DNA from: Massalongia carnosa
Taxonomy: Eukaryota
Assembly: GCA_965645245.1 (NCBI GenBank)
Contig: OZ287072.1
Location: forward strand, 310,001 to 374,000
Reading direction: 5' to 3'
Length of the DNA: 64,000 bases
Below the pieces are notes generated by a model. It searched no databases. It was not told the origin of the DNA and saw only the letters and a list, made by a program, of their open reading frames with translations. Each line of letters starts with the position of its first letter. Position 1 is the first letter of the stretch. The position numbers and the translations under genes were made by a program. Positions 781 to 59,011 of the stretch are shown piece after piece.

Positions 781-1402
781 ATGGGCATGCGTAGCATCCA
801 TCCGGTGCACGCAAGGGGCGCACCGCGCAACCTGGGGAACCCTCCCAAACCCACCCCGATGAGAGCAGACGCCACATCCCCCCCATTCGAAAAGCCGGTC
901 TCGTTGAGGATTCTATCTATGTACGGAGCACACCCAGTCCATTCGTGGGCTTTCGATGGCGTGCGCGCCGACAACAACGTGAACCGTAAACTAACCACCG
1001 CCTGCGTTTTTGGGGTTACACCACAGAACATCGTAAGCTCCTCGAGTCCTAGCGCGAGTTCACGAAGATTTCAACCACAATCGATTGCCAGTCACAGCCG
1101 CTGTTGGTTGCACGAACGGGCATGAGGGTCGATAGATGGTCGATAGATGGTCGATAACTCGATGTCTTGACACTTGTTGAAAGCGGAAGGTACAAGATGA
1201 AGACGGAAGAGGTTAGGCGGAAGAGGGTGTTTTCTCCCCTCCGGTCTTCAGGGTTAGGGCAATCGTGATGCAATGGGTGATGGATGATGGGTGATGGGTG
1301 ATGAGGGGGCTACTTCCTGAGTATGGCCATCGAAGCATGGACGAGGTACTCTTGTACGTATGGATATGGATACCTATTCGGGGGTTGCTTTCTCGTTGGC
1401 TA

Positions 1403-3570
1403 TCCCTCTCGCTGTCATTCTAGCACCCCCCCCCAAGCTAAACCATTGTTGGTTAGAAAGCGCTAAACCTTAAACTTTTGACCAATCAATGTTATTCCTA
1501 TTCACAAGAAGTTGTACGGAGTATCAGATACCTATTTACTCGTCCCCTATCATATGAATAGCTTCCCAACAGCTGGCTTTCTTACAGCAGGGCCTGATTG
1601 GATTACATCCTCCACAAGCCCATATAGTCTGAGCACCCCTTCGCCTTCTTTTACGCCCATCGACACTTATTTCAGCCAGTGGCTCTCCCTTCCGCTTTGA
1701 AGGTCGTTTTTTCTCGGCGTTACATTGCACACATCTTTTTCTGCCTTCAAGACGAACGTAATGATGAATGGGAGATGGTACTAAAGCATCAATCGTGGTA
1801 TTGATGCTTATCTTTGATGAGCCGGGCCTGATGCCCGCTTGATTTGATATCAGTTCAAGAGCAATCCGACGAAGAAATTCAGAACGAGTAAATTTTATCT
1901 CCTCGGAATCGAAAGAGTTCAGCGAGTAAAGTTTATAGGCATTCAATCCGGCTGCATCTAAAATAAAAATGAACAAAGGCCACCAGTAACGATCCGTTCG
2001 ACGATTGTATGAGTAAATCGCTCGTTGCTGAGCGTTTCCATCCGATCCCCCCATATGAAGATTATATTCTTTGATTGGGGCTGGTATCGGTAATCCTAAG
2101 GGCCGTTGAACCTCTTGATTGAGCAAGGGAATGGAGTGAGCCAGAGTTGATGGGAAATACGATACAATAGGTTGAAGAGAGGTCTCGGGAATTCCATATC
2201 TCTTGTGCGGATTTATATAGTGCATTTCGTACAAGTCCTGAGGAGAATGACCGGTGGTCATGTACTGCACACCATTATTATCCACCCAGCCCATACAAAG
2301 CACCTTATCGTCGACCACCATATGGGCCTGAAGACCCCAGTCTTTTCCTTTTGAAGTGACGTCCCGTATGGCCAACAATTCTTCTGGAAAGCCCGAGCCC
2401 TTTTTAGCAGTTCCACTGGCAGCTATTCCGATTGATCGAAGTGCCTTGAATAATTTCGTACTAGTAAAGAAATTATCACAGAAAAGATGATAATTCAGTG
2501 AGGATGGAAGTTCTTTACATAACTGAATCACTAGCAAAGCACTAGGAGTTAGTTTATCTTTTGGCAAAAATCCCAATTGTCTGACTGTTTTCAATTCACT
2601 TATTCTGCTACTCTTCGAGGCAAACATAAATGACAACAGATAATTATCCTGACAGAGACTGTAGATTTTAAATCCTTTATGGGCACTTTTTGTAGTAATC
2701 TGCAAGGTATGTCGAGAACGGCCCTTGAATAACACCAGCTGTTCATCTATAGATATCATACTTCCTGGTCTGCAATGTTTCAATGAAGTCTTTCGGAAAT
2801 CAGTAGCCAACGGTTCCAGTTTCTTCCACCAATCAGGTCCTTGACCAAGTCCGATAGGCTCAGTCTGTCCATTATTGATTTTCAAAAATCGTTTGATTTG
2901 TTGAAATCGACCAAGCGACATCGCGGACAGAATAGGCATGATAACTGGTTTGTCAGGACGTTGATTCCAATAATCCTCTGTAGCAGGTAGATGATCGAGT
3001 CCCATAAGAATTAATATGCCCAAAAAAACCTCAATTTCCGAGTCAGTAGTGTCAGTCCAAACCCGATGATTGTTCTCCTTCTCCTTTTCCATGTAGTTAT
3101 TTGCCTTGATATTGGTATGATTTGCGATGATACGACAATGCTGCCTTGTTATAAATAACCGAAATAATCCCAAAGGATTTCGAGAATCGTTTTCAACGAG
3201 CGGAACAAAAGGCCTGTTTTCAACCCGAATGGGGGTATATTTTGAGGAAATAGGGGGAAGGTCGATTAAAATATCCCGAACACTTCTTTTGCGATTTATT
3301 TTATGTTGCTTCGCTGAAATGGGAGATTTGTCTGATACACTCGGGATTTCTTCTTCATTGAGCGTCATACTTATAATATCAATTCCGAAGCTAGAAGAAT
3401 AGTAATTTATGTGATTTATTTTGATTGAATGACCGAATAGTATTCTTTGAAAAGTAAACAAACGCGCAAACACTCTAGAGAAAACTAATGTTCTGATGAC
3501 TCATCGGTGCGGAAGCTAGTCCAATATAGATTAGCTTGGGGGGGGGGTGCTAGAATGACAGCGAGAGGGA
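1403..3570 (-). mobile_element. Full-length piggyBac-family DNA transposon (2168 bp) with 39/40-bp TIRs, flanked by TA
   Basis: Left TIR 1403-1441 is TCCCTCTCGCTGTCATTCTAGCA(C9)AAGCTAA. Right TIR 3531-3570 is its reverse complement, differing only by a 10-G run. TA lies at 1401-1402 and 3571-3572. The element encloses an intact transposase ORF. Confidence 0.93.
1536..3368 (-). CDS. piggyBac transposase (DDE_Tnp_1_7 type, DDD triad, C-terminal Cys-rich domain)
   Basis: Uninterrupted ORF, open to 3473, with first ATG at 3368. Motifs: SIDEQLVLFKGR, KGFKIY, FCDNFFTS, YNLHMGGSD, RYWWPLF and C-terminal RCVQC...CGGC...CC..SCW..H. Confidence 0.92.
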   Translation of the reverse strand: MTLNEEEIPSVSDKSPISAKQHKINRKRSVRDILIDLPPISSKYTPIRVENRPFVPLVENDSRNPLGLFRLFITRQHCRIIANHTNIKANNYMEKEKENNHRVWTDTTDSEIEVFLGILILMGLDHLPATEDYWNQRPDKPVIMPILSAMSLGRFQQIKRFLKINNGQTEPIGLGQGPDWWKKLEPLATDFRKTSLKHCRPGSMISIDEQLVLFKGRSRHTLQITTKSAHKGFKIYSLCQDNYLLSFMFASKSSRISELKTVRQLGFLPKDKLTPSALLVIQLCKELPSSLNYHLFCDNFFTSTKLFKALRSIGIAASGTAKKGSGFPEELLAIRDVTSKGKDWGLQAHMVVDDKVLCMGWVDNNGVQYMTTGHSPQDLYEMHYINPHKRYGIPETSLQPIVSYFPSTLAHSIPLLNQEVQRPLGLPIPAPIKEYNLHMGGSDGNAQQRAIYSYNRRTDRYWWPLFIFILDAAGLNAYKLYSLNSFDSEEIKFTRSEFLRRIALELISNQAGIRPGSSKISINTTIDALVPSPIHHYVRLEGRKRCVQCNAEKKRPSKRKGEPLAEISVDGRKRRRRGAQTIWACGGCNPIRPCCKKASCWEAIHMIGDE

Positions 3571-4364
3571 TACTGGAAATGTTTCGAATCATTGGCTAGT
3601 CGACAATTTATTCCTTGACGTACAAGTTAATGTTTTGAACGAACATGCTACTTAGACAGCTATTGGATGAGGCCCAAGCCTTGATGAGTAAGTGGTCCGG
3701 AAGAGTGATTAAACTCCGTTTGCTACTAATCAGATGGTATGCCTTTCGACTCTCGCAAATATCTCCCAGTGTATTTCTTTTCAGATCTCCCAATCAGTCC
3801 GTTTGTGCGTTCGAGTGAATGAGCTCAAGAGATATGAAGTCAAGGTTTCTGCATAGATTCCTTGCTGCATTTCCTTCCTTTATTTACCATTTTTAACCAC
3901 TTGCATCTCATGCCCATCCCGTCTTCACCAACCCCCTCCATTCCTGAACATCTTACTCCGTCATAGCCCTTGCGATTCTCCTAACTTTAAAGCATCCCAA
4001 TCGCTCAAAAACATCTCTTTCATATAGGTAGGTGTTGCCTAACTGATCGAGGCAACACGACAGATACGTAGGATTCCTCTACATATGCTAACTGTGAATA
4101 AGTGTTTCCCGATGGGTTGGGAAAGAGACAGCATTTGTTTCCATACCCAACGTTAAAGGCCCAGACAATAAAAAAACAAGAGATGATCCGTGTAGATCGC
4201 CACGACGCCCCATCATGTCTACAGGAGGAAGAGGAAAGGGGTATGTATGGTTGGCCAACATATTTAACATGCGACAGACAGACAGTCTGATAGATAAACA
4301 CCTTTTCTTAGGGATTCGCCAGATGCCCAGAATCCATTTACGCCAAATCCAAAAGCTGGGTACG

Positions 4365-7300
4365 CTAGACGCCACGGAACTATAGTGCCACCCAAAGCTG
4401 GTTAGCGAATGAACAGATTCTGAAAAGCAAGAAGACTGGGGCTACAACGCTGAAGATGAAAAAGTAACGACTTACCATCCGCACCACCAAAAACCAGGTC
4501 GCACCACAAAACCGAAACGCCGACAACGCGGCCACGCTCCACAGTACGACTGCCATGTAAATCGTACTTCTCTGCGTATCGCTATTCTTCCCTATCTCGA
4601 CGCGCTCCAAGCCAGCGGTACTCAGCACCACGGCTGCCAGAGCGAAATTCATAAACATCCATGCCAGCACGACGGCGCTACGGAAGCCCTTATAGTAGTC
4701 TTCTTGCTTCTCGGCTGGCGTGATGACTTTGACCTCCTTGGGCGCCTTCTCCGCAATCATGCGCATTTCCGTTTCGTACTGCGCGTTAAGGTCGCCGTCA
4801 TCGGTAGGTAGCTGGATGTCAACTTTGCCACCGGGCTTAAGGTTGGCGCTTTCGAGTTTGGGGGCTTTGTCATCGCCTCTAGTACCCCAGGTGATATCGT
4901 GGGTGTTACAGAATGCGTAGACATTGAGGATGTTGATGTAGGTTGGTGTGAGAAGAAGGTATTGAATAAACTGCCATGAAACATTAAGGTTGGCTTCTGA
5001 CCGATGATGTTGGGAGATATAGGACTTACGGAGGTAAACAAATGCCATGGATCGAAAAACAAAAACGAGACGACAAACCATAGGACATAGGTCGATGTAA
5101 GAGATACGATCAGGGTGAAAAAAAGCTGGTTATGAAACAGATCCGAGATGGCGAAATGATGGTCCGCCGTTTCTATCTGTATCGACTTCACAGTGATGAA
5201 GATGGATGCAAAGATCAAGTACACCATGATGCCGACCCAGAAGTAAACCATTGTCATGTAGAACTTGTTAGACCCCTGAGGTCGATTCCCCATGGCTAGG
5301 ACGAAGCATGTCAGTAATGTGGCCAGGTAAAGCCACTCGAAGATAACCCCTAGAGCCCTTCCTGCCGTCCCTAGAAGATTGTCGGCACCCAGCGAAGTGG
5401 TGAGAATGCGGAAGACCAGGAAGAAATTTCCCTACGCCGTATAAGTTTCCTTGAATATAACAAGCTACATACACTTACAATGGCAAACCAAGCGAAGAGC
5501 ATGTTAATGGTTTGATATACAAACTCCACCATGAACATCAACTTCCTCAGGAAACTATGATCCGTTCGATTAATTTGATAGAAATGGGCCAGAGCATAGA
5601 CAGCGGCGAAGAAACTACCGTTTAACCATCGTCTTCGCTGCATGATGAACTCCGCCATAGTATCTGGCACGTCCGTTTCACCTGTGGAGGATTTGACGTA
5701 TTGCAGAATCCATCGACAGTTTCTTTTCGACACAAGCTCGAAGCATAGGATTCGATCTTCCGCCAAATACATATTAGCTGTGAAAATGCCTGCATTGGCA
5801 CCATGCATCTTCTCTCCGGCAAAGTATTTTTCCAGGGGTCCGTTGCCACTCTTGTCATTTTGCAATGCAATAAAACGATAAGCGGAGAATGCTCCGGGCA
5901 GTACGGTGATGAAACCGAACGCAGACTCCAGCGGTTTATCGAGAATGTTGCTCATCTTGTACTCAAAATTTTGCGTAGCGACCAAGGGATTAAGGAGCTT
6001 TTTGCCACCGCTCGTCATGACTTTGATTTCTCCACATGCACCGGCACACATGGGTTCAAGATCAAATGCCTTCCACAAATGGTAAATAGAGTCTTTTCCA
6101 GGTTTCGTCCCTGCGTCAAGGAGTACGCAAATGTTAGGGTCCAAGACTCGTCCAAAGGCTTGGAAAAACCATCGGTGGGAGTTGATTTTCTTCTGGTTCT
6201 TTTCCTTGAGACAAAAGATCAACTGCACCGGGGTCGCTCCCTTTTTCAAACTCACAACCTTTCCCTTGATCTCCAACCCCACCTGTGTCGTATATTCGTA
6301 AATATGTGCAGTCACATCTTTTCCGCTCACCTGTTGTTTGGCAATACCGTCTTGGTAAACCCCCAGACCAGCCAATACCGCCCTTGTCCGTGGATTTATC
6401 TTGGCACGTCCATCGCTAACAATACAGACAACAATTTTTTTCCAAGCTTCTTTACCCCAAGTCTTACTACTGGTCCTAGAGCACATGTGCTCTACGTTCT
6501 TAAAGACACCACCCATTGTTCTCGCAAAGAGAAAATCATCTTCATTGTACATCGTAACCACGATGAAAAGCTCCGTATGTCGTGGCTTCGCGAATAGGCG
6601 CTGCCGAAGCGTAAAGCGCTGGTCGTAAAACTCCGAAGGATCGCAGGTTGCGGCGGAATAACGCATATGAGTAAACTCGTCACGCTCCGGTGGCTCCGCA
6701 TGAGGAACCTGGTTTAACAGTTTGGGAGGTAATGGGCAATCAAGCACGAGGTTTCCATTGAACAGCTGAACTTCTTTGACAGTTTTCCAACGCCTTATCG
6801 GCGCAGGGCTCGGAGTTATTTCTGGTCGTGGCCCATCGTACCGGTCTTCAATATCTGGCTGCAATCGAGGGTTGGGGCCAAAAGCGTTGTGGGGCTGAAG
6901 AATTGGTTGTTCATCATTCTCGTCAAAGTATTCTTGCTGTTCATGCGAAGGGTATTCGCTTAAACTATGTTCATCTTGGGGAGTTGGGTCATAAGGTTGT
7001 GTGTAATACGCATCGTGGTGTTCTTCCGGAGACAGCGTATAATCACGATCCCGATAATTGTAGTCCGGTCCCACCGCCGGATGATGGGCCTCATACTCTT
7101 GATTATGATGGTGGGAACTGTCTATGTTTTCGACAGAATATGTAGGTTGCGCTGCTAGTCGATCGCCTGCTCCAGCCGGACCCATTGGAATCTGTAATGG
7201 GCCTTGTTGCGGTCTGTAAGGCCCATCTTCCAACTGGTATCCGGCGAGTGGGTGGGCTGGGGAACCCCCGTTACGTGGAGGAATCATTGGAGGTAGGATG

Positions 7301-7488
7301 GAGTGGTAATCTTCTTCGTCTGGATGAACACTAGGACTACCTTTATTCAGGAGATATTGTTAGCGGGGTGGTCTTGGATAAGGGTCTTCTGATAGGGTCT
7401 TCTGATATGGCCATCCATATGCACCATGCGGGGGTTCAAATCAAGGGGTTGAATCGATGGGGAATGTACCTAGGCGGTTATATGCCAT
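4365..7488 (-). CDS. Chitin synthase, class I (division 1), multi-exon
   Basis: Exon 1 is ATG GCA TAT AAC CGC CTA G (MAYNRL) at 7488. The main exon has [57 protein letters not shown] and QRRRWLNG. Later exons include [11 protein letters not shown]. The last exon FRGV* stops at 4365. Confidence 0.95.
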
Positions 7489-8097
7489 CGCCACAGACTT
7501 TCACAAGGAAGTTCCTCCAACTTCACGTGAAACTCGAGAAATGTGAAGAACGCCAGGCAGAGTTTCAGAGCCACGGTAAGAACTGAAGGTAAGTAAAAAT
7601 TCCACCACTGAACATACGCAATGAGCTGACCAGTCAGTACTGAGGCGGAGCCCTGTTGAACTCGCCGACCGCGTGGGGTGTTTTTAATCTACAAACTGCT
7701 AACAGTGAAGAGAGTTTGACATAAAGAGGCCTTTCTCCTCAAGTCTCAAGGGTCAAGCAATAGGCACTGGTAAAGAATGGCGTGGGACTGAGTGGAAGAG
7801 GAAGTTGAAATTTACGCCTCACGTTTTGAGTGCTTTACTCATAGGGCCCAGGCTGAAAGCGACAGAGAATGAGCGACCAGGGTCTGGTGGGAGACTCAGA
7901 GTCCGTATAAACATCTAACCAGTCATTTTAGGGGCTCATGCGCAGGGCTTATTGGACACTATCAGCCTGTCAGAGCCTAGCGTCTCACGTGCTTAACCAC
8001 CGATCACGGATCCGGAAGCCAAACTTAACTCAGCCTCAATACGACGCTAGGAATCTTTGGTTCGAAAATAGGTAGGTAGATCCAGCCAGAGTCTCTC

Positions 8098-8734
8098 ATG
8101 GCCGACCAGGACGATGATGCTACCAAGGCTGCTGAGCCGGTGTCGGTGCTCTTTGTCTGCCTTGGAAACATCTGTAACCGCCCTTCTCCAGTCCATCATG
8201 CCATCCACCTTCCTTCCATCCCCCGCTACCCCTCCATACCCGGTTACTAACATCCCTCGTCCAGGCCGCTCCCCTATGGCAGAAGCAGTATTCCGGTCCT
8301 TGACTGTCTCGAACCCGCTTATTGCACATGTCGACTCCGCGGGAACAGGCGCCTACCATACTGGCGATAGCCCAGACCCGCGGACCATGAGCACGCTGGA
8401 GAATAACGGCATCGGAGACTACAAGCACGGAGCACGCCAGATCCGCTCATCTGATTTTGTAGAATTCGACTACGTGTTGACCATGGACGGGGATAATTTG
8501 CGGGACGTGGAGCGGGCGAGGCAGCGGGCGTGGAGGAATGGGGGTCAGGACGGGCAGGGGCAGGGGAAGGGGAGGGTGATGCTCTTTGGGGATTTTGGAG
8601 GGAGAAGGGGCGAGGAGGTGGTGGATCCATATTATGGGGCCCGGAACGGCTTCGATGTGGCATACAAGCAGATGGTGCGGTTTTCGACGGGGTTTGTCAA
8701 GCAGGTTCTTGGAGAGGAGAAAAAGATGTCATGA
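8098..8734 (+). CDS. LTP1: Low-molecular-weight protein tyrosine phosphatase
   Basis: ATG at 8098. The P-loop SVLFVCLGNIC/RSPMAE is split by an intron. Other motifs: DSAGTGAYH, ARQI and VVDPYYG. Confidence 0.92.
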
Positions 8735-9223
8735 CGATCGTGATCCTTGTTAAAATCCATGACATAGAATATAGACGACAGTGGTAAGTATGATGGGCAA
8801 TAAACGGCACTGAGTAGCCGAAAATATCTTCGTTTAAGCCAACTCCCAGAGGTTGCTCCTCAAGGCTTGTGTCGAGTCAGCCATGTGATCGAGACTTATA
8901 CCATAGCGGATGGCCGTAGAGTCAAGGTAGAGGAACAGGGTGGGACTATATTCAGCAATATTATAGATTATCTTGCGCCACGAAACAGTGAAATCAAATG
9001 GGAATTTTGCACTTATCTACTCCCCCCTAATTATCCTTGGAAAATGTCACCTTTAAAGCACCCTTTACCGCCGGTCTTGCCCCACCGCAGCTTCAGTGCT
9101 AAAGACCTCCATCACAAGACAAAAAACCCCTTTGGTCATCGTCATGAATGCTCAATACAAAACCCTCTTTCCTAGGGCTGTACAAAATACGCCCTTCGAC
9201 CAGATTTGATAATCTCAATGAGA

Positions 9224-10657
9224 TCATGCATCCTCATGCCTTAAGATCGGAGAGTCTAGAGTAGGGATGTTGTTTCCCAGCCGAATGCGCCCTTCCCTTT
9301 CGGACCTTCGTGCGTCTAATCGATCTTGCGCCGTAAAACTCCAATGACAGAGCATTCCAGCTATAAATCCTACTGCATCATTTTTGAACGCCAATATCCC
9401 TCCAACGGTGATGAGCATCACAGCCCATCTCCTCTTTCTCTCGGCTTCTGTTAGATTGGTAAGCTTTCTGGAATTGCTGTCTTCTTCTTCGCCCTCGCGG
9501 CTTGCGTCGCCCTCACGGCTTGCGTCCCCCTCGTCGAGCCACTTCAGATCTCTCGCACCCTCGGTATTAAGGCTTTCGCCCACATTGACCAATTCTAAGC
9601 CTGCAGCAATAACCATGATACTGAGAAGACTGTTCGGAAACTCGGCAAATAGGTTCTTCGTAAAGTTTCCTGCGAACAAGCCAAGCACTAGTTTCACAAG
9701 CCCAAGGAAGATGACACTTGCCCCTGAACGGGCTCCGAATCGGTACTGAGCTGCCAATCCCCCACTACCATGGCAGACTGGCATAGCTCCGAACCAACAG
9801 CCCACCAAATTCATCGCCATGACGCTAAGACCCATGGCAGTCGGGGTTGGCGCCTGCACTTTTGGAAGCAGATCTGCAGACAGGAAGGATACCGCGATAA
9901 CCGAGTTAAGCGTGGTAAGTGGAATCTGCCCTAAGCCCGCTTCCAAAGCTCCTCTACGAAAGCTTCCCAGCGAAGGGATTGAAACATGAGGCTTCCAAAT
10001 GCCGAAGCCGAAGGGCGCATCCGTATCGAACCCTTGAGGCAAGGTTTTAATGATTCCGATGAATAGTATAATCAACGCAAACGGTATCCGCGGAAACATG
10101 GGACTTCCCAGCAACGCCAGGAAAGCCAGCAGCACGGCAGCAATCAGAAGGATGTTGCCAACCCAGGAGGCATCCAGCTCGATCTCAACCAACTTGCCGC
10201 CGTAAATGATCAAAGAAAGTCCTGTTCCGGCTTGAATGCCCTTTATAACGGGAATAGGAACCTTGCGGGTAAACCACTGTATGAGTCCCGTGATGCTTAG
10301 AAAGCCGACGACGCCTGCAACAAACAGGCCCGCAGAAGAGACTTCCGCCTTGGTGAACCGTCTAGCTAGCGCAACCGCAGCAATCGCTTTCATCGGCTGC
10401 ACAGGAAGGGGGATCCCGAAGGACAGCCCGGTCAGGATATTCGCCAGACCTGCAAAAACGAGAGTGCTAGACAAGGAGATGTAGCCTTGAGATAAGGCCA
10501 GGAGGATAGGCAACAGCGTTCCAAGATCTCCAACAGATCCAGAGATTTCGGTAAGAGGTTGACTCCGAAAGGTGCGGATATTGTAATGTTGAACGGCCAG
10601 GAAGCTCCGTTTCGCCTGTGCTGCATGCTCCTTGACATTGTAGCCTAGAATAGCCAT
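9224..10657 (-). CDS. Molybdate transporter MOT1-family membrane protein
   Basis: Intronless 477-aa hydrophobic ORF with EISGSVGDLGTLLP, PLPVQPMKAIAAVA and GAMPVCHGSGGLAAQYRFGARSG. Confidence 0.88.
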   Translation of the reverse strand: MAILGYNVKEHAAQAKRSFLAVQHYNIRTFRSQPLTEISGSVGDLGTLLPILLALSQGYISLSSTLVFAGLANILTGLSFGIPLPVQPMKAIAAVALARRFTKAEVSSAGLFVAGVVGFLSITGLIQWFTRKVPIPVIKGIQAGTGLSLIIYGGKLVEIELDASWVGNILLIAAVLLAFLALLGSPMFPRIPFALIILFIGIIKTLPQGFDTDAPFGFGIWKPHVSIPSLGSFRRGALEAGLGQIPLTTLNSVIAVSFLSADLLPKVQAPTPTAMGLSVMAMNLVGCWFGAMPVCHGSGGLAAQYRFGARSGASVIFLGLVKLVLGLFAGNFTKNLFAEFPNSLLSIMVIAAGLELVNVGESLNTEGARDLKWLDEGDASREGDASREGEEEDSNSRKLTNLTEAERKRRWAVMLITVGGILAFKNDAVGFIAGMLCHWSFTAQDRLDARRSEREGRIRLGNNIPTLDSPILRHEDA

Positions 10658-10999
10658 CTTGCGCTTAGGGTATATTAACGGCTTTGGTTAACTCTAGATC
10701 GAAAGCCTCTGAAGAATGATGCTGATGGCCCGGTCTTGTCGCGATAGGGTGTAGGAACGCTTGAAGTTAGGGAAGGACCCCATGATGCGGATCAAGAGTC
10801 GCGGTCACAAACCAGTTCTCTTGCAGGTGTGACAACCCTAAAACAAGGATTTAACCAATCAGCCATTTTTGCTCGACCCCCTGCGCGCATGACGCGTTTA
10901 ACTGATCCGCATCTCGACTTTTAGTTTCGACGCTCCGTCTCATCAAGTAAAATATCATATAATATCTTAACAGCTTGGCTTGACGGGCTGTCTGATATA

Positions 11000-12200
11000 A
11001 TGAGTTTTCCGAGCTCATCTAGATGGCTTACTTCTTCAGGTAAAGTATTCCATCCCCTCGGCGGCATATTCATACCAAAAAATCCTAATACGTGGTCCTG
11101 CTTAGCCGTCTTCCATGGTCCCTCACCCTCTCAATACCCAATTCTCCCTTTCCTCCATCCCTCTGTAATCCATCGTCGATCTATCTTTGAGCGCTTCTTC
11201 GGCCGTAAAAAAAAAGAGCCCAAGAAATTTCTTGACCCGCTATCTCCCGACTACCTGAAACGCAAGCCCCTCGACGCACCCCAAACTATTACCCGCGGCG
11301 ACCTTGCCCCATCCTCAATCATCGACTCCCCATCACCCGACGATGCCGTTTCTTCCTCCTCCACCACACCCACTATCCCCCAAGTCCTGCGTGATCCATC
11401 GATTATGGCCGCCGCTCTCGACCCCAAGCCCTATCTCCGTAAGCGCTGGCAGCGAAAGATGACAATCCGGGACATCCGCAAACGCGGTCGCATGTCCAAA
11501 ACCATTAAGATCGCGCGCTCGGAGCGGGTCTCTTTGACGAAATCCCATATGATCAAGACAAGCATCAAGAAGCTGGGCCCGCTGGCGCGGCAGATCGCCG
11601 GGAAGCCGATCGAGGACGCGATCGTGCAGATGCGCTTCAGCAAGAAGAAAGCGGCTGTCGACGTGAAGAAACTGCTGGAGTACGCGAGGGACGAGGCGAC
11701 GGTGCGGAGGGGGATGGGACTGGGGAATGTAAGGCTTCCCGCACAAGAAAGGGAAGAGCAGGATGGTGCGGCGGCGCGCCAAAAGGCGGTGGTGGTGGAA
11801 GACCGGAAAGGGAAAAAAAGGATAGTCACGGATCGTACGAGCATATACGTAGACGAAGCATGGGTGGGTCGTGGAAAGTACGGCCAGGCACCCGATTTCA
11901 GAGCCAGGGGAAACATGAACATCATGAGGACGCCAGAGACGAGTAAGTTTGTTAACATTCAGCTTTCTTTCACGTTTCGGAGTATAAAAAGCACGCCATG
12001 CTCCGCCTCTCCCTTTTCTTCGATCGTCGCCCACCACTAACGAGAACATGACAATGGTAGGTATTTCAATCGTGCTCAAAGAAGAAGCAACTCGGATCCG
12101 GCAAGCAGACGAGCGGGAGCGAAAACGACAGCGGAAAAAGGTCTGGGTGCCGCTGCCCGATCGCCCGATCACGGCCCAGCGCCAGTATTGCTTGTGGTGA
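11000..12200 (+). CDS. MRPL22: Mitochondrial ribosomal protein uL22m
   Basis: Motifs KTSIKKLGPLARQIAGKPIEDAIVQMRFSKKK and IYVDEAWVGRG. After an intron (about 11943-12060) the last exon ends ...KKVWVPLPDRPITAQRQYCLW* at 12200. Confidence 0.9.
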
Positions 12201-12978
12201 ATTGCTACCCCAACACCCTGTTCGAATCTTCCCAAGAGAAAAATCTGCCTTGTTGTATTAGGGGATTCAGCGCCAAGCTAAGCCGATATTGTTCGTTGCA
12301 GAAGGAAGCTGGGATACCGGGCCCCTCTGGGGGAGGGGGTATATCTTGTATTATGGTTGTATCAGTCAGATGGTACCTCTATACATATTTAGCATCCATC
12401 TAGCAAATGATAGATATTAGAAAATCTGCAGCCAGCTCATACCCTAACACCCAGGAGTGTGGACATGCTCGTCTCTCTTGATTCCTATAGTTTAATTCCC
12501 CCCCACCCCAATGACCAAACGAGGATCAACAGAATGATATAATCTGCATTTCTGACTACCTATTCAAACCCCATTCTCTGAAATCCCCCCGATCCAGGTA
12601 CACCCACTTTGGGATACATAGATAATTAGATAGGTGAGATTTAAAAATAAAGCTGTTTCTGATTCCCAAAAAATTCGAAACCGAAGCAAAAACACGATCT
12701 AGATTGTTACACTAGCCTGAGACATTCTCGCAAAAGGGGAGGAGCTATGTCTTGCTTGCCATGCCCGTGTACCAAATCCACATATTAGAAGCAGCCAGAA
12801 CAAGATACTAGTATTCGACCTCACATGAACTAGCACGAAAAAGCAATAAAAACACTCGAAAGCTTTCGCAAGCGATTAGCATCCTCCCTCCCCATCCCTG
12901 CCAAAACGAAAGCTTGCTGAAAAATTAGCAGGCCATTAAGGTTTCATTCTTAGTTCCGCTTTTCAGATACAGCTGGCT

Positions 12979-14169
12979 TTAATTGGTTGCACAAATGCCT
13001 CTGGTGAGACGAAGGCGCTTGGAAGGTCTGGTTGCAACGGGAGCCGGGATGTCGAACTCGATGGATGGAATCGGGATGTCGCAGCCGGCGATACGCTTCC
13101 TCTCTCGGGTTGACCGATTGAAGATTTGTTCCCGAGCAGGTTCTTCTTCTTTAAATGCCACTTCCTTTTCTTTCTCCTCTTCGGCCTCTACTTTGCGCTT
13201 CTTACCTTGTGCTAGTCGTTTTGGTGCTAATAACACAGAGCGCGAAACTAGGGCCACTGCAGGATTTTGACGGGGAAATGCCATGAGTTCGCGCTTTGGG
13301 TTTGCAGCAATCCTCGTCCGCGTACTGTTAGCGGGTGTCGAGGTTGTGGAGTAGGCAGAGGAAGCAAGCGAGGTCCTATTGCGGAGCTTAGGAGAAGCCA
13401 AGGTATCAACAACCCTAGCGGCAGGAAGTTTGGCTGTAACTGTTGTTTGCTTCTTAAGCATACCGGAGGTGGGGTAGAGATCCGGGTCGATGACGGGGAG
13501 GAACTCCACTCCGGGAAATTCCAACCATTCATTAGCTGTGCCCACATCTTGGATCAAGTCGACGATTTTATAGATATCCGCGAAGGTCTTGCCATCCCCA
13601 AGGTAAGGTACCAAGAATCGTTCACGGCAGGGCCTTTTGGTACCGCTGTCGTTGACGGCGGTGAAGCTGCAGGCCTGACTGTTAGTATCCGCGGCCAGGG
13701 CTTGTGCTCCTCGCGCGATAGCAGCATTCTCAGCGTCCAGCTGCTTCTGCTCTGCAAGCCGGAGCGCCACGCTCCAGCTGGTGACGCCGCCCCACTCCTC
13801 CATGCGCTCGAGCTGCAAGCGTACGCAGTCGGCCTGTAAGCTGAGCCAGCGCTTGTATTTCTGACAGCGGAAGCGGAAGCGCTGATAATGCTTTCTGCAG
13901 TAAACGATAATGCAGGCGTCGTTAATCTGAGTCGTGCAAGCTTTGTTGCGGCCAAAGATGTGGGAGACAACCTTGCGATTGTCGAAGCAATCGCTTCGGC
14001 AAACGGTGACGGCGGTGCATGCTTCGTTAATGGCGCCATCGTCACGGACGGTGGGTTCTTCGGTGGAGATAATTAGGTTTTTCTGAGGGTCCATGGTCCT
14101 TGGTTGTTTGATTCTAGCGGGGAAGAAAAGGAGGGGTTGGATTGGGTTGAGAAGTAGTTTTATATCCAT
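12979..14169 (-). CDS. Fungal ORP1-like protein with a Cys/His-containing conserved domain and a disordered basic C-terminus
   Basis: 396-aa ORF with RKVVSHIFGRNKACT...YCRKHYQRFRFR...W...LR and FPGVEFLP, a motif set recurrent in filamentous ascomycete ORP1-like proteins. The start could be the second ATG (MDPQK). Confidence 0.6.
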   Translation of the reverse strand: MDIKLLLNPIQPLLFFPARIKQPRTMDPQKNLIISTEEPTVRDDGAINEACTAVTVCRSDCFDNRKVVSHIFGRNKACTTQINDACIIVYCRKHYQRFRFRCQKYKRWLSLQADCVRLQLERMEEWGGVTSWSVALRLAEQKQLDAENAAIARGAQALAADTNSQACSFTAVNDSGTKRPCRERFLVPYLGDGKTFADIYKIVDLIQDVGTANEWLEFPGVEFLPVIDPDLYPTSGMLKKQTTVTAKLPAARVVDTLASPKLRNRTSLASSAYSTTSTPANSTRTRIAANPKRELMAFPRQNPAVALVSRSVLLAPKRLAQGKKRKVEAEEEKEKEVAFKEEEPAREQIFNRSTRERKRIAGCDIPIPSIEFDIPAPVATRPSKRLRLTRGICATN

Positions 14170-16015
14170 CAGGTGCGTCAGGTGTTTTACAGACGATCGG
14201 GATGAATAGCTCTAGTAGTGGAGAGTCACTTGCTATTAAAATGCTCTGGTTATGATCAATCATCTAGAAATGAATATTATCAAAGTCATTCAAGTTTTAG
14301 GTCTGATGGAAGAGTGAAGACTTACAATAGGGAACTCGAAAAATGGGTTGATGATTGGTTAACACTGGAGTAGGCCAGTCTCATCTCTCCTTTATATGCA
14401 TTTTACAAGCTCTCAATTTCGCGCCTGGCTTTGAAGGTACGATCTCGAAGGGTAAATAATTTCAAATGTTAACAACAAAGGTTGTATAGTATAGAGCGTG
14501 GACAACATGTAAGAACATACACGTCCTAATTGAGCACTGGGACTATAATATCCCAAAACGAAACAGCATAGTTCAAATCCTAAGCCCTTCATCGCATGTG
14601 ACATCAGCCCAAACTGTGAAGGAAACAAACACGATAAGCCTTTCAAAGGCAAAATCACAGCTACAAGCCAACTTATAGAGAACATGTGAAATAGAAAGTA
14701 TTCCGAGTATGCTTTTCGTACTAGGGAGAGTCAAATTCACACTCTCATGTTCAAGTTACTCCATCGAATGTGCGTGAATACGAAGGACATCCTTAATCCG
14801 GAGGAAGGAAGAGTCTCATTACCCAACCTAGAGACATTGTATGACACGTAAGGCAGCCCAGACGCTTCAGTCTTCGTCGTATGGCATGGAGTAACTTGAT
14901 CCTTTAGGCATCTGAGAGTTCATCATCATTATATCTTTCCCAAATCTAGTCGTTTTCTCTTCTCTTGCAGTCGGACTCAGCCACTTGAGCGCAGATTCAC
15001 CTAATGACTAGTTTCCTATCTGGAATAGGCTGCCTTGATGAAGAATCATGAGGTTGATCCACTTCACATGCTGAGAATGAAACTTAGAAAGCTTTATACG
15101 CCACGAGGACCCAGGGGTATCCCGATAGCAAAATGTAGTTCCTAGGACACTGTTAGAATCTAAGCAGGTCTCGCAAGCTCCATTAACCGATCTCCCGTGT
15201 ATTGATGTGTGCTGTTACCGGACCGAGATTTATACTGATAGTACTCAAGCATCGTAGGTGAAGAGACCAGCATGGGTGGTTAGAAAGCCCAGATGCGGTT
15301 CCTTCCCCTATCATTACTTAAGAGGAAATCATCTGTACCGGAAAGGCTCCCAAGCATCAGGCATGAAATCTGATTCTTGATCAAAACTCTGAGTGGTTCT
15401 TCGATTGTCCTCATGCGGAGTATAATCACGTGATTTGACTAACTACCTAGCTCGAGTCACGTGACTAGGTTACAATTACCCACGCTAGTTCGTTTGGGGA
15501 ACTACATGTGGAAGCTTCCAACTGGTGAACATATTAGAAGATCGTTCATCCGTAAATCTCTTTCCTGACTCTTCTTGTTCTGTTTTGTATGTCAGGATTT
15601 CTATACAGATTCTGTGTTGCTGATTTGTTCTTGTTTTTTCTGAATGCTTTGATGTACTCAAGAGTCGTATACTATGCAAATCAAGTATGCTGCTTTTGGC
15701 TATCTTTATTTGCAACCCGTTACATTACGCCTTGTGAAACTTGGCACTGAGTAAATTTTTCGACCTTTTGCATTGATACAGCTCTAGAGAAGTGATCCAT
15801 CTAGCTATTCTTTCAAAGTCGTCGTACTAGACACTTTTCTTGTGTTCAAGCAAAATACAAGGCTTTGATCAGGACGCTTGATACATCAATCAAACTTGCT
15901 CTCATATATACACAACTTTTCACCGAAGAACTAGCCATCATCGGATTTCCATTGTCACAAAGGAGACATACCGCTGATCATCTTTAACGTCACTCGTACC
16001 GTCATTGATGTATCA

Positions 16016-19000
16016 ATGACTAAGGAACTCCAAAACAATGGTGTGGATATGGGCCTTCCAGGCGGCGTAAAAAGGAGCAATGCTGAACGCACCCAATTCG
16101 TTCAACCAAAACGCGGAGCTATATCAATTATCAAGCCACCCGTTGATTCATTAACAGTATCTCCCTCCAAAAATCCCCTCAACGGTAAGCTTCATATTTC
16201 TGAACCTTTGCCAAAATCCGGGGTAAGTCTGCTCGGTTCTGGTGGTGCAGATTCTACCGCACTACCATCTACTAGCCATTTGTCATTCAATCTACCCAAA
16301 AAAAGTTCATCGGCCATCTCGATGCTTGCATATAAAGGCCCTAACGTCCAAGAACATATTATTCGGCAGGATTTCCAAGTTAAAGAACATGAAAAATCCA
16401 GCCAAGAAGCTAACTCTACCGAATCACGATGGAAACCAGACATTTACATTAACAGTTTTGTCCCTAGAGCTTTTACTGCGATCAATTATTCTTCTGCTGT
16501 TCCCATAGCTAGCATAGGGGTTGAGATAATCGATTTTGCAGAATACACCAAGAATTTTGCGGGCGTGTATTTTATTCCTGATATGAAGGCCCTGGCTTAC
16601 CAACCCACACATAGTGACGGGAGAGTTGGTGCATCCTTCCGATTATTGGACATTGATAATTACACGGATTATTTTATAGATTCTCTTTTTTTGGATCTTG
16701 AAGCGCAAAACTCTAGGATACACTCTCATGATCTATTTGGAGTCCCTCTGATAGTAAACGAAGCTTCTCAATATATATTTACACTACATGTGCCAGGCCT
16801 AAGAGAAGGCACTCCTATCGTGTCTTATGGTGATAAGGTTATGCTGCGGCAGCTACGGCTAGACCCAGTCACAAAGGTTCCAATGTACATGGCACACTGG
16901 ATGTTACCAGGGGGTGGTTATAACCAAGGTACCCCTGCACCTGGATTTACAGGATATCAACTCAATGCTATCGTGATGGCGGTTGATAGGAGTGCCGAGA
17001 ATATTACCTTGCGAGTTAACGGCGTATTACCGGAGCCGTTGGTCTTCAACGTTTGTTTTGGCGTGCAAGTTCGAGACATCCAAAGCATGCAAAGAGCGTT
17101 AATGCGTGTAGACCATGAGCTAGCTCTAGCTCGTTCAACAAGTATCTCATCTAGATCTACCGAACACCATGGTATCAGCATAGCTATGGATACGAATACA
17201 TTCGCGAAGGGAGAAGTCAACAATTGGCTTCGCTGTATGCTTTTTCCTGTTGAAGCAGACGGAATATGGCAAGATACTCCCCCATCCGGAACGTTCAAAC
17301 AAAAGTTTATCGATCAGAGCCTTAATTACGAGCAAAAGGCAAGTAGTGTGTCTTAATCTTGTTCGGCAATATGGCTCTAATAGCATCAGCAGAAAGCAAT
17401 AGACTCCATTCAGTCCAAGAACTATGGCTGCATACCTTTTCTGATCCACGGGCCTCCAGGCACCGGGAAAACGAAGACGATTTGTGAGGCTGTTCGCCAG
17501 TTTTTTGTTGACACAACTTTCCGTGGAGCCGTCCTACTGTGCGCCCCGTCAGATCCTGCAGCTGATACCCTTGCTCTACGCTTGAAAGCGCAGTTTAATC
17601 AAACGGAAATGTTTCGTCTCAATGACTACAAAAGGACCTTTGCCGAGGTACCACAGGAGCTGTTATCATACTGCTACATTGAACGTGGCATATTCAGCCT
17701 TCCCCATTTCCCAACGCTTATGAAATACAAGGTTGTTGTTACCACCTGCTATGCTGCCGATATCCTTGTTCAAGCCCGCATAACCAACCGCGATTTGGTC
17801 TTCCTTGAGACGAACATGAAGAATATCTTAAATCCTTATTTTGCTCAAGATATCTCGCCTGTTTCCTTACATTGGGCAGCACTCTTAGTCGACGAAGCAG
17901 CACAAGCAACAGAGCCAGAACTCCTTATTCCCGTTTCCGTCATAATTCCACCAGCCTCCCACGTCGTCTCCCCTCTATTCGCCATGGCTGGCGACCACCA
18001 TCAGCTTTCTCCTCGAACCTATAACAAAACCACAAGCCTTCATATATCCCTCTTCGAACGACTCTCCGCCCTCCCAGTCTACGCCTCGCACCCTCTCTCG
18101 CGTCAAAATGCGCAAAGAACAACCCTTTTCCGACCCATGTTCCGCCCCGCCTTTGCGAACCTAACGCGCAATTATCGCTCTCACCCCTCCATCCTCGCTA
18201 TGCCCTCCAGACTCTTCTATAATGACACCCTCATCCCCGAAGCTACGGATATCGACTCGCTCCTCGCGTGGAGCGCTTGGCGCGGGCGCCGCTGGCCCCT
18301 TCTTTTTGGCTGCAACGGTGGCATTGACGCCTGCGAAGACGTCCAAGCAGCAGGTGGAGGCGGCTGGTATAACTTGCGTGAAGCCACCAAAGCAATTACG
18401 TACGCTGCGGATGTGCTATCATTGGGCCTTGTCGCGGCGCAGCCAGACATCTGCATCATGGCGCCTTTTGACACGCAGGTGCGCTTGCTGCGGAACATGG
18501 CACGGGCAAGGGGGCTTTTCGGCGTGAACATTGGTCCTGTCGAAGCTTTTCAGGGCCTGGAGAGCCGAATGGTTATTTTTTGTACGACAAGAACCAGGAT
18601 GAGGTTCGTAAACGCCGATACAGCCAGAAACGTGGGGGTTATGAGTGAGCCGAAGAAATTTAACGTCGGTATCACGAGGGCGAGGCAAGGGCTGATTGTC
18701 TTGGGGAACCCATGGGTGTTGGGCGCGGATAGGTGCTGGGCCCAATTCTTGGGATTTTGCTGGCGTAACGGGCTTTGGGAGGGAGAGGGAGAGGGAGAGG
18801 ATTTACACGACCCGATTGAAGGAGAGGAGGGGAGGGTGAATGAGTGGGTTCCTGAAGCCGAATCGGGAGCAGAGGGTGGGCTTCGTGGGATAGAAAAAGC
18901 GCTGGTTTATCGAGACAAAGGTGATGAGGGGGAGGGGTCGAAGGCTGCGCGAAGATTCTTGGGCGAGAGCATTGAGAATAGGATGTGGCGCATGGGATTG

Positions 19001-19039
19001 GAGGCTGAGGCTCAGGTGGTGCATGAAGACGAAGCGTGA
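16016..19039 (+). CDS. SF1 UPF1-like RNA helicase, MOV10/SDE3/Armitage type
   Basis: Two exons joined by a GC-AG intron (17339 to 17389/17392). Motifs: VPGLREGTP, LNYEQ, HGPPGTGKT, CAPSDPAAD, VDEAAQATEPE, GDHHQL, NYRSHP, VEAFQGLE and FNVGITRAR. Confidence 0.88.
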
Positions 19040-20581
19040 GCGGCGCGGATGAACGCTAGCTCCCCAGGAGGCGCGGAAAAGAGAGATTCGTGGAGCCGAG
19101 ATGCGTATCGCTGGATTTCGGAAGGCGAAACAAGAACAAGAGAAAGAGACTGGATCCCGCAAGACCGAGGGCTTGTTTGGGAGAGAATGTGGGAGTAGTG
19201 GTGGGTTTAGGGGGCTTGGATACTCCGTTTCGAGGGCCACCGAGCATGTGTGTTCTTCGCAATTCATTGTTGTAAGCGGAAGGTCGTGTTTAGATACCAC
19301 CAGGATATTTGCACCACTATTTTTGACAAACTATAAACACACAAGTGATTTTTTTTTTTAAAAAAAGAGGTGAACCAACAAGTAAGCTGTTCTCACTATG
19401 TAAAGCGGAAGGATACATGCCTTGCTGAGGCGAATACCTATTTCTTATAAATTTAGCCAGAAGCTCCGTTGTACTTCAACTAGTTTATATAACTAATGTT
19501 TTTCCCAGTTCGCGCTCGAGCGCTGTTCATTAGATCAAGAAACTTCTCATTTTTGAAGTAATTTCCTGCCGCTCTTCGTGACGTAAAGTTCTGCTATTCA
19601 TCATGGAATGACACTCTTGGAGAGAAATAGGACCCAACTGCAAGCTTTTCTGTAAATATATCCTGAATATTCAACTGACGGCATCACAGTTCCTTTGCAC
19701 GTGAATAACCTATTCTGATGGAACCCACCTTACTGGCACATTCACTCTCGTTTATTCCATACCATCACGATTGAAACACCTCTCGAGCATACGGGTTTTC
19801 CCTGAAATAAATGAAGAGTAGATACTGACCACCGCCAATTTTGTATTAATGGAATCACTCTAATTGGCCGTTATCCGATGATAAACTGCGTGAGCGCCAA
19901 AAACTTCAGTGCAAAGTCTTTTATCAAGTTTGCATTGGCGGGCCCTTACCCCAAATATAGGACCTGCCTGGGTTGATTTTATCTCAGTGTGTACGGGTTG
20001 GGTTCGGAGACTCGCTACAGCCTCTCAGTACGGCGAGCTTTGCCAAAGGAGAAAGATGTCTGCGACATTGGCTGTAATGTTGACTCTGGGTCGATTTCCT
20101 GAGAAGCGTGGAGGCTGACGGCAACGGCGAAGGAAGAGAGCTCCACAACGGGGATATTTTTTCCTGATGACGAGAGCGTAAGGTACCAGCATGCGGAGTG
20201 TGTTTTTCCTTATAATCATGCAAGCCATTCAGCGACGTTTCAGAATAGTTCCATGCAGGCGGAAAAAGCTTGATAATCGCTCCTGAGAGACGAAGTCACA
20301 GACTTTTAACCTTATCTTTATATTTCCTCTTGTTCTAGTCCTGAGATACCATAACTGTTGCTCGACCAGACTAATTGAACTCGACTGAGACTGTACATTC
20401 CATCCCGTCAGGTGTATGTCAGTAATTTTTCATTTCCTAAAGTAGCAGTAATGACTTTCTTAAAGGCTAAATGCGCTCCAGCAACTTTGAAATCCCTTTC
20501 GTAAAGCATAATCCTTAGAATTTACCAACGAGTCGTCCAAGTTAGCTATAGTAAACCCTAAGACGAGGCATATCCGTGTTA

Positions 20582-20674
20582 TCCCTCTCGCTGGTGATTT
20601 GGCAACCCTTATCAGGAATAATGATCTTCCGCATACTTTTGAGCGGGTGGTTGCCAAATCACCAGCAAGAGAGA
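20582..20674. mobile_element. 93-bp MITE with 26-bp TIRs and piggyBac-related termini, flanked by TA
   Basis: Left TIR TCCCTCTCGCTGGTGATTTGGCAACC (20582-20607) pairs with GGTTGCCAAATCACCAGCAAGAGAGA (20649-20674) at 24/26. TA lies at 20580-81 and 20675-76. The first 12 bp are identical to the TIR of the element at 1403. Confidence 0.85.
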
Positions 20675-20689
20675 TAACGCGTCGCTCCG

Positions 20690-20886
20690 TCTCTCTCAGC
20701 GTTAAAGAACTCTTTACACTCCGAGCCATCTGTCCGGATCTGCCAGCAGTGCATCCCCTACCCCAGGGCCCCGAATGACAAGGTAGAAGAACCCTGAGTC
20801 CTTGCATGCTTTGAAGAAGGCCTCCTTGCGCTCTCTTGGCTCATCATTAGAAGTTGAAAGTCGTTTGTGCAAACGGCGGCGCCATG
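20690..20886 (-). pseudogene. Degraded 2OG-Fe(II) oxygenase (DIOX_N-like) N-terminal remnant
   Basis: Fragments in shifting frames with stops: MAPPF..., NDEPRERKEAFFKACKDSGFFYLVIRGPGVGDALLAD, KEFF. The AC...GFFY motif is typical of DIOX_N. The MITE lies immediately downstream, and weaker relics may extend to about 19800. Confidence 0.5.
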
Positions 20887-55387: not shown

Positions 55388-56002
55388 TCTTTTTGAAATA
55401 AGATGGGAAGGGATGTAGTTCGAGGGGGACATGACCATCTTTTAGCTTGTATACCTTTTCCGTCCCGAATGCTTAAGCTCTACCAGTTACGCGTCGACTC
55501 CGCTACAAAACGCCTCCTTGAACGGGTCCGAATCCGCATCGGCAGTAGAATAATGGGCTAGAACATTTGCAGGGTGCCATCTCGTCTTTTGGTATCAATC
55601 CCAATAGGAGGCTGCGCAACGATTGAATGGTACAGACTGATTTCCTAAAAAAAACAATGTAAAAGAATAAAATGTTCAAAGAGTGCTCAGAAAATTGCTG
55701 CAGCACAAGCTCATTCGAATATCATGCCACTTGACACGGCTCGCAAGTGTGAAAGCCCTAGTTCAGATATCGGGGTGTCCCAATCCTATTTTGATTTGTT
55801 CGTCGGGAACCTCAGCTGATGGCTTGCAAGTAGTTGGCCATATCAACGCTGAAAGAGTAAAGAATTGTGGCTATCCATTGGGGGGGATGCTCTGCGCATT
55901 TCAGCTGGCACTCAGTCTACAGGACTGAATGCCGAACACCCATATAACCGAAAATTTAAATATTTTGACCAACCACCTTGATAAATTATCATCAACATCA
56001 TC

Positions 56003-57600
56003 ATGTCTTCCACTTATCAGGAAATTGAGGCTCGAATTCAACTAGCTATTGATCATCTACGAAAAAATCCTACAGCTAAAAGAGCTAAAATTGCGCGTCA
56101 ATTCGACGTGCCTTCGCAGCGACTTCGTTTTCGACTTCAAGGTCATCCCCCCGCATCTGACGTACGAGGACTGCATGGACGTCGATTATCATCTGATCAA
56201 GACTTGGCCTTAGTCTTATATATTCAGCGAATGATCGTATTAGGCCTTCATCCTCGTTTTCGAATGATAGAAGCAGCTGCCAATAAGTTGCTAATGCAGG
56301 GCTGGACTGATTCGACCCCACCACAACCATTGAGTCATGCATGCATGGGCCACACGATGGATGAGTCGTCATTCTGAATTTCAGAAGATTAAACGCAAGC
56401 CTATTGCAGCCGTACGAAAGAATGCGGAGCACCCGGTCGTTTTACGAGCTCATTTTAATCAGTACAGTCAGATAGTGCATGAGCATGGCATATGTGATGA
56501 GGACAAATGGAATTTTGATGAGACGGGCTTTCGATTGGGTCATTACTTTAGCAGATGACAAGCAGAAAAAGGTGTTTTCTAAAGATCCAGACAATCGTGA
56601 AAGTTTGACAGCCATCGAATGTATAAATGGCGCTGGGGGCAGCATTCCTTCATTTCTCATACTCAGTGGATTGATGATTCAAGGTTCATGGGCCGAAAAT
56701 GATTTGAATGATGGAGTCATGCTTTCGACAGCCAAGACTGGTTATTCAAATGACTGGTTATCTATAGAATGGCTGAAGCATTTCGATAAGCACTCCTTAA
56801 AGAGTCAAAAAGGGGCGTATCGACTACTAATGATGGATTTTTATGGGTCGCATCATACTATTGAATTTATTAAGTACTGCAATGAGGCCAAAATGATCCC
56901 CTTCGGCCTGCCACCGACATACGACTCATCTGTTGCAACCATTGGACGTCGTAGTTTTTCAGCCCCTGAAACATTGGCATGCTGAGGCGGTTAAGGATGC
57001 AATGGCCCATGGGGACGAGACGTTTAATAAGGTGGAATTTTTGAATGTTTTCAACTCGTTTCGAAATAAAGCATTCAAAATTTCGACTATAAAATCAGTA
57101 TTGAAGGCCGTGGGCATCATTCCTTTCGATCCGTCCGTTGTCTTCGATAAATTGGGAATAGGGGCCTCGTACATTGAGGCCGATCCTTTGGCTGATATTT
57201 ATGATCAAACACCTGATCATTCGGATAATGATCTTTCGGACCCGCAAACTCCGAAGAATTTGAGTGCTTTGCTTCAAGCTTCGTATGAAATTGAGGCTCA
57301 ATATGCGAAATTCGTCAAAGGCGCTTTAGCATGTGCTCGAGAAAGCGAGCTGTTATCGGATCAATTAGCACTGACTAAAGCAACCGAAAACGCTTGAAAG
57401 GTGAGGGTCAATCAGAGCAATCATTACGTTCAAAAAGGAGGAGTTATTCAGGTGGATCAATGCAGAAGAATGACTTTCGAGCGAAAGGAGGAAGAGGAGC
57501 AATTGGAGTCGGATCGTCAGAATAAGGCTGATCGTCAACAACGAAAGCGATGGAGGCCGATATTTAGGGAGTTGAAACGGAAGATACCATATTATATAGT
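56003..57600 (+). pseudogene. pogo/Fot1 DDE_1 transposase pseudogene
   Basis: HTH_psq-like start (AKIARQFDVPSQRL), WNFDETGF, RESLTAIECI, LLMMDFYGSH and QPLDVVVFQPLK lie in four frame segments. There is a 4-bp CATG duplication near 56340 and a TGA at 57395. The 3' end is split by the nested element and resumes at 60445. Confidence 0.9.
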
Positions 57601-57996
57601 AGGGGTTTTCAGAGTAGAAATTTTCGAGTCTATAAACCATTATTCCCGTTTTCCCGTAAATATTAGTAAGCAAACTAAATCTATATAGGTTTAACTCTAC
57701 CCCTTTTTTTTATAAATACGGGAACACGGGAATAATGGTTTATCGGTCAAAATCGACCGATAAACCATTATCTCATAAACCCGTATCTCATAAATCCTTC
57801 AATCCACTAACCTCATTCATCAGAATTATAAGGTAAATGATCAACGGCATCAACGAATCGTACAATTAAGGTAAGAATACTACTACCTCGTCTTCTTTCG
57901 TAGCTGACCACTGTTCTTGTCAGGGTGTTCTTGTCAGGGCTCAAAATCTAGTTAATAGAAATTCTCAGAATCAGCCCCAACAGTTCTAAAATAAAG

Positions 57997-58962: not shown

Positions 58963-59011
58963 GATTTTATTTCATTGATGTCTCAAAGATGAGATGCATC
59001 TTGCTTAATAG

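Follow-up and report, generated by a model that had tools for sequence, protein, structure and literature searches.

Duplication of a TTAA target serves to define the piggyBac superfamily and to mine genomes for its members, and the cryo-electron microscopy (cryo-EM) model of piggyBac links the 4-nt stagger of the joints to seamless excision; reviews give TTAA as the rule and treat other flanks as mutations (PMC5381638; PMC numbers refer here and below to excerpts of the papers). The present analysis concerns a full-length piggyBac-superfamily transposon of Massalongia carnosa that is located in a stretch of 64,000 nucleotides (assembly GCA_965645245.1, contig OZ287072.1, positions 310,001 to 374,000; the window) and carries TTAA at neither its left nor its right end. 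Its sequence and that of its copies are best read, with a probability of about 0.7, as an insertion into TATA that duplicates 2 bp (AT), the ends of the element being the canonical CCC/GGG.

In the piggyBac structure, the T-T-A-A following the joint is held single-stranded: N440 contacts its third base, Y439 helps to make the pocket of the second base, and Y283 stacks on the fourth base, which pairs back to the first; the spacing of the active sites mandates a 4-bp offset (PMC7351741). Among fungal elements, Ti_tr1 of Tuber indicum, reported in 2013 from one copy, is a 2,351-bp insertion that shows a TA duplication in place of TTAA, 52-bp terminal inverted repeats (TIRs) and a three-exon gene for a PF13843 transposase; its authors left it unclassified (PMC3864998). 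Compared by description and not by junction sequence, the present element resembles Ti_tr1 in its ascomycete PF13843 transposase, its TA flanks and the absence of TTAA. PiggyMac, the enzyme of internal eliminated sequence (IES) excision in Paramecium, is also piggyBac-derived and acts at a conserved dinucleotide instead of TTAA; it makes a 4-nt staggered cut around TA and leaves one TA, whereas here AT is repeated inside a fixed TATA by a mobile transposon (PMC3408717). Junction geometries that would fit the fungal family are known from Spy (no target-site duplication (TSD), AAA/TTT; the slash marks the joint throughout) and ISL2EU (2-bp AT TSD), but their transposases are related to IS5/PIF-Harbinger and do not belong to PF13843 (PMC4122938). 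The piggyBac "group 4" covers fungi, land plants and algae; the large mining study concerned filtered for TTAACC with up to two mismatches, and its excerpts state no other target rule for this group (PMC13461360), although ends of the form NTATCC would pass the same filter. Likewise, no target rule for fungal piggyBacs is found in the excerpts of PMC4455052, PMC9942856, PMC13728883, PMC5751038 and PMC8773270, and nowhere in the literature searched is a TATA/AT rule described for piggyBac; novelty may also depend on the supplements of PMC3864998 and PMC5381638 and on entries in Repbase and Dfam.

The element and its transposase

The window is fungal by gene content (chitin synthase at 5371-7287), and one sequencing run with the window is labelled lichen metagenome. 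The following features were assigned:

1401-1403, plus strand: left host junction TAT; in the preferred reading target T and duplicated AT, from the empty-site comparison of other copies
1404-3569, minus strand: full-length piggyBac-superfamily transposon, CCC...GGG, 2,166 bp, from sequence, inverted arms and copy alignment
1404-1434, plus strand: TIR on the 3' side of the transposase, 31 bp, perfect
1536-3368, minus strand: transposase open reading frame, 610 aa, PF13843
1554-1766, minus strand: C-terminal Cys/His-rich domain (H535, H536, C546, C549, C585, C588, C594, C595, C600, H605)
2040-2747, minus strand: catalytic core with D208 (2745-2747), D298 (2475-2477) and D443 (2040-2042)
3539-3569, minus strand: TIR on the 5' side of the transposase
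3570-3572, plus strand: right host junction ATA; in the preferred reading duplicated AT and the last A of the target, from the empty-site comparison of other copies
20580-20676, no strand assigned: miniature inverted-repeat transposable element (MITE) of a sister subfamily, 91 bp (20583-20673), junction TAT/.../ATA

The left junction (1398-1414) reads GGC TAT CCCTCTCGCTG, the right junction (3559-3576) CAGCGAGAGGG ATA CTGG. The inverted arms 1401-1434 and 3539-3572 show 100% complementarity over 34 nt, and past the perfect 31-bp TIR the similarity of both ends continues beyond a C-run with a one-base difference. Positions 1403 (T) and 3570 (A) are target or indistinguishable from target, which makes 1404-3569 the preferred extent of the element.

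The 610-aa product matches the Pfam family PF13843 (DDE_Tnp_1_7; E 8.9e-53, residues 64-478). Its DDD triad D208/D298/D443 aligns with D268/D346/D447 of T. ni piggyBac, and the cluster of ten cysteine and histidine residues between H535 and H605 is conserved in the alignment. The AlphaFold2 model (pLDDT 84.4) retrieved 6X67_C, 9C0F_C and 9C0F_D as the top three Foldseek matches (E 4.8e-23 for 6X67), followed by Tn5; by sequence, the best matches were piggyBac and piggyBat (E 3.4e-17 and 5.6e-15). Family assignment, triad, piggyBac fold and C-terminal Cys-rich domain are thus those of the superfamily, and the TIRs start with C in agreement with its CCY motif (CCCTC after TAT), provided that the element is taken to begin at CCC; the motif is shifted by one base if it begins at TCCC. 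The element belongs to the piggyBac superfamily but lies outside its canonical TTAA type. In this respect the initial annotation, an intact piggyBac-family transposon, is borne out by transposase, triad, Cys-rich domain and the perfect 34-nt arms.

PF13843, the DDD triad, the insertion domain and the C-terminal Cys-rich domain are common to T. ni piggyBac (6X67/6X68), piggyBat (9C0F) and the fungal protein. The fungal element further resembles piggyBac in its CCC...GGG ends, a strict palindromic 4-bp target and the retention of Y439 and N440 (equivalents Y435 and N436). It differs in the target itself (TATA instead of TTAA), in a net duplication of 2 bp (or 0) instead of 4, and in nearly symmetric ends with the 31-bp perfect TIR; the identity in the fold alignment is about 20%. 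In the equivalent of the omega loop, H220-T221-L222-Q223, the aromatic residue Y283 of piggyBac is replaced by Q223, and His-Thr occupies the positions of F280-R281.

The MITE, which had been put forward at 20582 as an independent instance of the junction rule, is indeed a separate insertion with the same type of junction (TAT/CCC at 20580-20585, GAG/ATA at 20671-20676); its TIR, one of them with two C>T changes, matches the sister subfamily and not the window element. The MITE was also found in run X1.

Junctions and empty sites in the genome

The genome assembly searched comprises 52 Mb in 25 contigs. The 12-nt end motif has 146 exact genomic copies, versus none for the reversed control. When the 30 best transposase loci were retrieved, 29 could be aligned to the element across more than 2,000 bp, with identities of 99.3-100%. 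Several MITEs have the same ends, as do sister subfamilies whose proteins are about 80% and 64% identical; read depth over the element was high in all four runs, among them X1, which represents a different individual. The element is young, probably still mobile and autonomous, and within the piggyBac superfamily it probably belongs to a large fungal branch.

For the youngest two subfamilies, 100 ends were gathered genome-wide by a longer TIR pattern: 96 read TAT/CCC, two CAT/CCC, one had an extra C and one was irregular, while none was flanked by TTAA. The earlier claim of non-TTAA junctions consequently holds for the element and throughout the family. All 146 motif matches gave a similar picture (preceded by TA in 136 cases, by CA in 3); the seven without the A at -2 comprise four without element-like continuation, two whose partner end is missing from the fetched DNA, and one ambiguous pair. 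Outward from CCC, the 88 ends of 44 paired elements had T in 87, A in 87 and T in 85 cases, followed by A16/C32/G23/T17, confirming the variable outer base that had been predicted; C or G at this fourth position (55/88, versus 37% next to TATA in the window, p ~1e-6) is suggestive of a weak C/G preference flanking TATA, the copies being not fully independent and the background being that of the window only. A 2-bp repeat was present in 43 of the 44 pairs and a 4-bp repeat in one. The Repbase and Dfam families piggyBacA and piggyBacX are non-TTAA relatives of piggyBac, the former with a 4-bp ATAT duplication; compared by this description, piggyBacA deviates from the fungal family, where one pair of 44 repeats 4 bp.

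The junctions bear on two alternatives to an AT duplication. According to the first, the 4-nt stagger of piggyBac is kept on TATA: the ends would be CC...GG, and the mismatch of a TATC flap would always be repaired toward the flap. Such joining would preserve the 4-bp offset of the active sites (PMC7351741) and resemble the 4-nt cut of PiggyMac centred on a dinucleotide (PMC3408717), but it predicts some TATA/CC junctions; genome-wide, the sole end with a first position other than C was CACA/TCC and the TATA/CC form was not found, versus 96 ends with TAT/CCC. We regard a kept 4-nt stagger as very improbable. According to the second, a TCCC...GGGA element is joined bluntly and without duplication between TA and TA of TATA, as is Spy inside AAATTT. 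Filled and empty sequences would then be exactly those observed, the T beside CCC would be as invariant (87/88 ends) as a terminal base, DDE elements without TSD have precedent (PMC4122938), and one old, internally deleted copy with TGT/CCC on one side and GGG/ATA on the other would be explained by a TG^TA target without mutation. However, this is a single case, for which mutation or mismatch repair suffices if AT is duplicated; blunt insertion moreover requires a new terminal base in addition to zero stagger, is out of register with the end motifs of animal piggyBacs and would leave the conserved N440 equivalent no A to read. Blunt joining is therefore considered unlikely, though less so than the kept 4-nt stagger.

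Empty sites distinguish the proposals by the overlap of the two flanks: four bases for a TA or NTAN target, two for an AT duplication in TATA and none for CCC ends without duplication. An element-free paralogous repeat copy was present among the fetched loci for 8 of the 44 paired elements. The overlap amounted to two bases for seven of them (L040, L041, L044, L051, L053, L054, L056), and neither an overlap of four nor an empty site with a single TA occurred in any of the eight. In the cleanest case, L044 with GCC TAT/CCC...GGG/ATA GTG, the empty copy is 100% identical (30/30 bases) and reads GCC TATA GTG; L076 also fits a 2-base overlap when two separate comparisons are combined. The filled site x-TAT/CCC...GGG/ATA-y hence arises from x-TATA-y with a net gain of CCC...GGG plus 2 bp. 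Because the empty copies of the insertion-bearing repeats are two bases shorter than the joined flanks, the target is TATA, occasionally TATG (the homologue of L095 reads TATG in a 25-bp match), and not TA or NTAN.

The initial annotation had proposed either a TA duplication with TCCC...GGGA ends or ATAT overhangs on NTAN targets, and in both cases a very wide target range. Junctions of the form xTA/T...A/TAy with a free outer base agree with these proposals, as does the TA duplication described for Ti_tr1 (PMC3864998). Both predict empty sites four bases shorter than the joined flanks, which were found at none of the eight paralogues, and the empty allele foreseen for the locus is contradicted by the empty paralogues of the other copies; in the seven cases with a 2-base overlap the target was TATA, or TATG in one diverged homologue. 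In addition, the contigs of runs X3, X4, X5 and X1 end or cease matching at 1403 and 3570, i.e. one base further on each side than proposed, a weak argument given that the tool may cut at repeats. Taken together, these proposals have become barely credible. Regarding the target range, TATA occurs 201 times in the window and TTAA 198 times; being about as frequent, TATA is as narrow a target as TTAA and not a much wider one.

Several copies showed peculiarities of their own. L053 (1236-1299, 3466-3522, 4175-4293) also contains the empty site itself, in an exact 119-bp copy situated some 650 bp downstream of the filled one. The left and right flanks of L219 (contig C11, 276.5-279.1 kb) and L095 (C6, 268.2-270.3 kb) match different TATA sites in other repeats, possibly as a result of element-mediated rearrangements. 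A 32-bp micro-element that consists almost of termini only is located between TAT and ATA in L223 (317-348; C9 ~1,221,016). Full elements are paired at a distance of only 24-38 bp in L005/L006, L107 and L020/L021, and contig C11 begins with the spacer of the pair on C1. Young copies are broken by other insertions of approximately 0.37-5.9 kb or more in L036, L076, L077, L078, L100 and L102, several of which carry inverted or direct ends of their own, and the full-length copy L037/L215 (C18 ~1,463,300) has lost the terminal motif at one terminus, which runs into another repeat. At the window copy, run X1 has the flanks 900-1403 and 3570-13680 on separate contigs, extended by 317 and 7,357 unrelated letters, respectively; two junction flanks of X1 gave no match when searched against the assembled genome. 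This arrangement suggests that the assembled genome has been rearranged or has suffered a deletion at this copy, or else that X1 carries a different large insertion.

Relatives and neighbouring elements

A metagenome scan retained 80 related loci with 26-46% identity, many of them from a single assembly series; 59 were searched for TIRs, and 21 with matches near the contig end were omitted. The tally comprises 31 loci that represent 27 distinct insertions, all of which (27/27) read TAT/C...G/ATA, with CCC as first three bases in 23, CTC in three and CCA in one. Outside this tally, L173 showed TAT/CCC at both ends, three further loci had TAT at both ends with the first base changed at one, and four had a single TAT/CCC end, whereas 20 of the 59 contained no TIR or only unrelated inverted repeats. 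None of the 59 loci held a TTAA-bounded element; the lone candidate pair among the 80 loci was rejected, as it lies inside the TIR of L144. As far as the junction alone is concerned, read from the sequences of the ends without empty sites, the arrangement is clade-wide.

The 34 clade rows, drawn from the metagenome loci and from this genome and including its own row L080 with unchecked ends, were separated from 12 PGBD3-like comparison proteins by a branch with support 100. This tree, built with FastTree from 75 rows and 541 columns, did not include T. ni piggyBac, Pokey, PiggyMac or piggyBacA/X. The comparison proteins had been found with an insect transposase query, and their target duplications are unconfirmed; a search for TTAA-flanked reference elements in viral contigs gave none. 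In the alignment, the position of Y283 was aromatic in 0 of the 34 clade rows versus 12 of the 12 animal comparison rows, and the equivalents of Y439 and N440 were kept in 34 of 34.

Elsewhere in the window, a decayed DDE_1 element with 63-bp TIRs, which we take to be pogo/Fot1-like, occupies 55903-60566. It harbours a nested two-gene element of PIF/Harbinger type with TIRs at 57600-57622 and 60420-60442 and a DDE_Tnp_4 transposase at 59012-60268.

A candidate joining mechanism and its meaning

In the preferred reading, AT duplication with canonical CCC/GGG ends, the transposase would attach the 3' G that terminates either end to the A within T^AT^A; the joints would be staggered by 2 nt, compared with 4 nt in piggyBac, and AT alone would be duplicated. 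The strand beside each joint would then read G/A-T-A-N, compared with G/T-T-A-A in piggyBac: T in second and A in third place would be the same, in line with the kept contacting residues Y439 and N440, and the fourth place would be free, where the aromatic stacking (Y283) is lost. The correspondence of these three residues to the bases is one that we infer from alignment, without a structure. The CCC/GGG register is favoured because of this match of A-T-A-N with the retained and lost residues, and because CCCTC, CCCTT and CCCAT after TAT are end motifs of animal piggyBacs, the listed motifs being in register with them (PMC10813416) and the first C being the conserved TIR base of piggyBac (PMC5381638). 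Excision may proceed via hairpins at the ends as in piggyBac, with TATA restored by pairing of the AT overhangs: a hairpin loop of 2 nt would restore TATA directly, whereas with a loop of 4 nt the outcome could be either TATA again or, through central pairing of the kind seen in IES excision of Paramecium, TA alone (PMC3408717).

Several points weigh against this reading. TATA being palindromic, an AT duplication and a blunt TCCC insertion give the identical sequence, and among the non-canonical junctions none was found that would separate 2-nt from blunt joining. Given the mandated 4-bp offset (PMC7351741), the dimer must differ from that of piggyBac. Empty paralogues were available for only 8 of the 44 paired elements among the fetched loci; the homologues of L054 and L056 are only 81-92% alike, that of L056 with TATG at its centre, and the old element L090 showed an overlap of 5 or 3 against an 85-97% similar homologue, which may have lost one AT unit. 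No empty allele of the window copy was found in reads of other samples over 900-20850, where no contig spans the element, and no empty sites were found for the metagenome relatives. We lean slightly towards the broader view that the fungal piggyBac branch has changed the geometry of its transpososome: TATA would be read by part of the single-strand pocket, the ends would be joined with a 2-nt stagger or even bluntly and free of any duplication, and the element would still be excised without footprint.

That a broad clade targets TATA and duplicates 2 bp (or nothing) would mean that the stagger is able to vary among members of the superfamily; the position of Y283 is pointed to as the residue accompanying this change. 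The results also suggest that some fungal piggyBac annotations with "TA-flanked" or "TTAA-like" ends are misread. As a tool, the element would offer a different set of targets, not a wider one, and with intact copies that are 99.3-100% identical the question is directly testable. If true, the fungal family would use a seamless transposon chemistry of a second kind, orthogonal to TTAA in its target, and would at the same time provide a natural test of the claim that the spacing of the piggyBac active sites fixes the 4-bp stagger.

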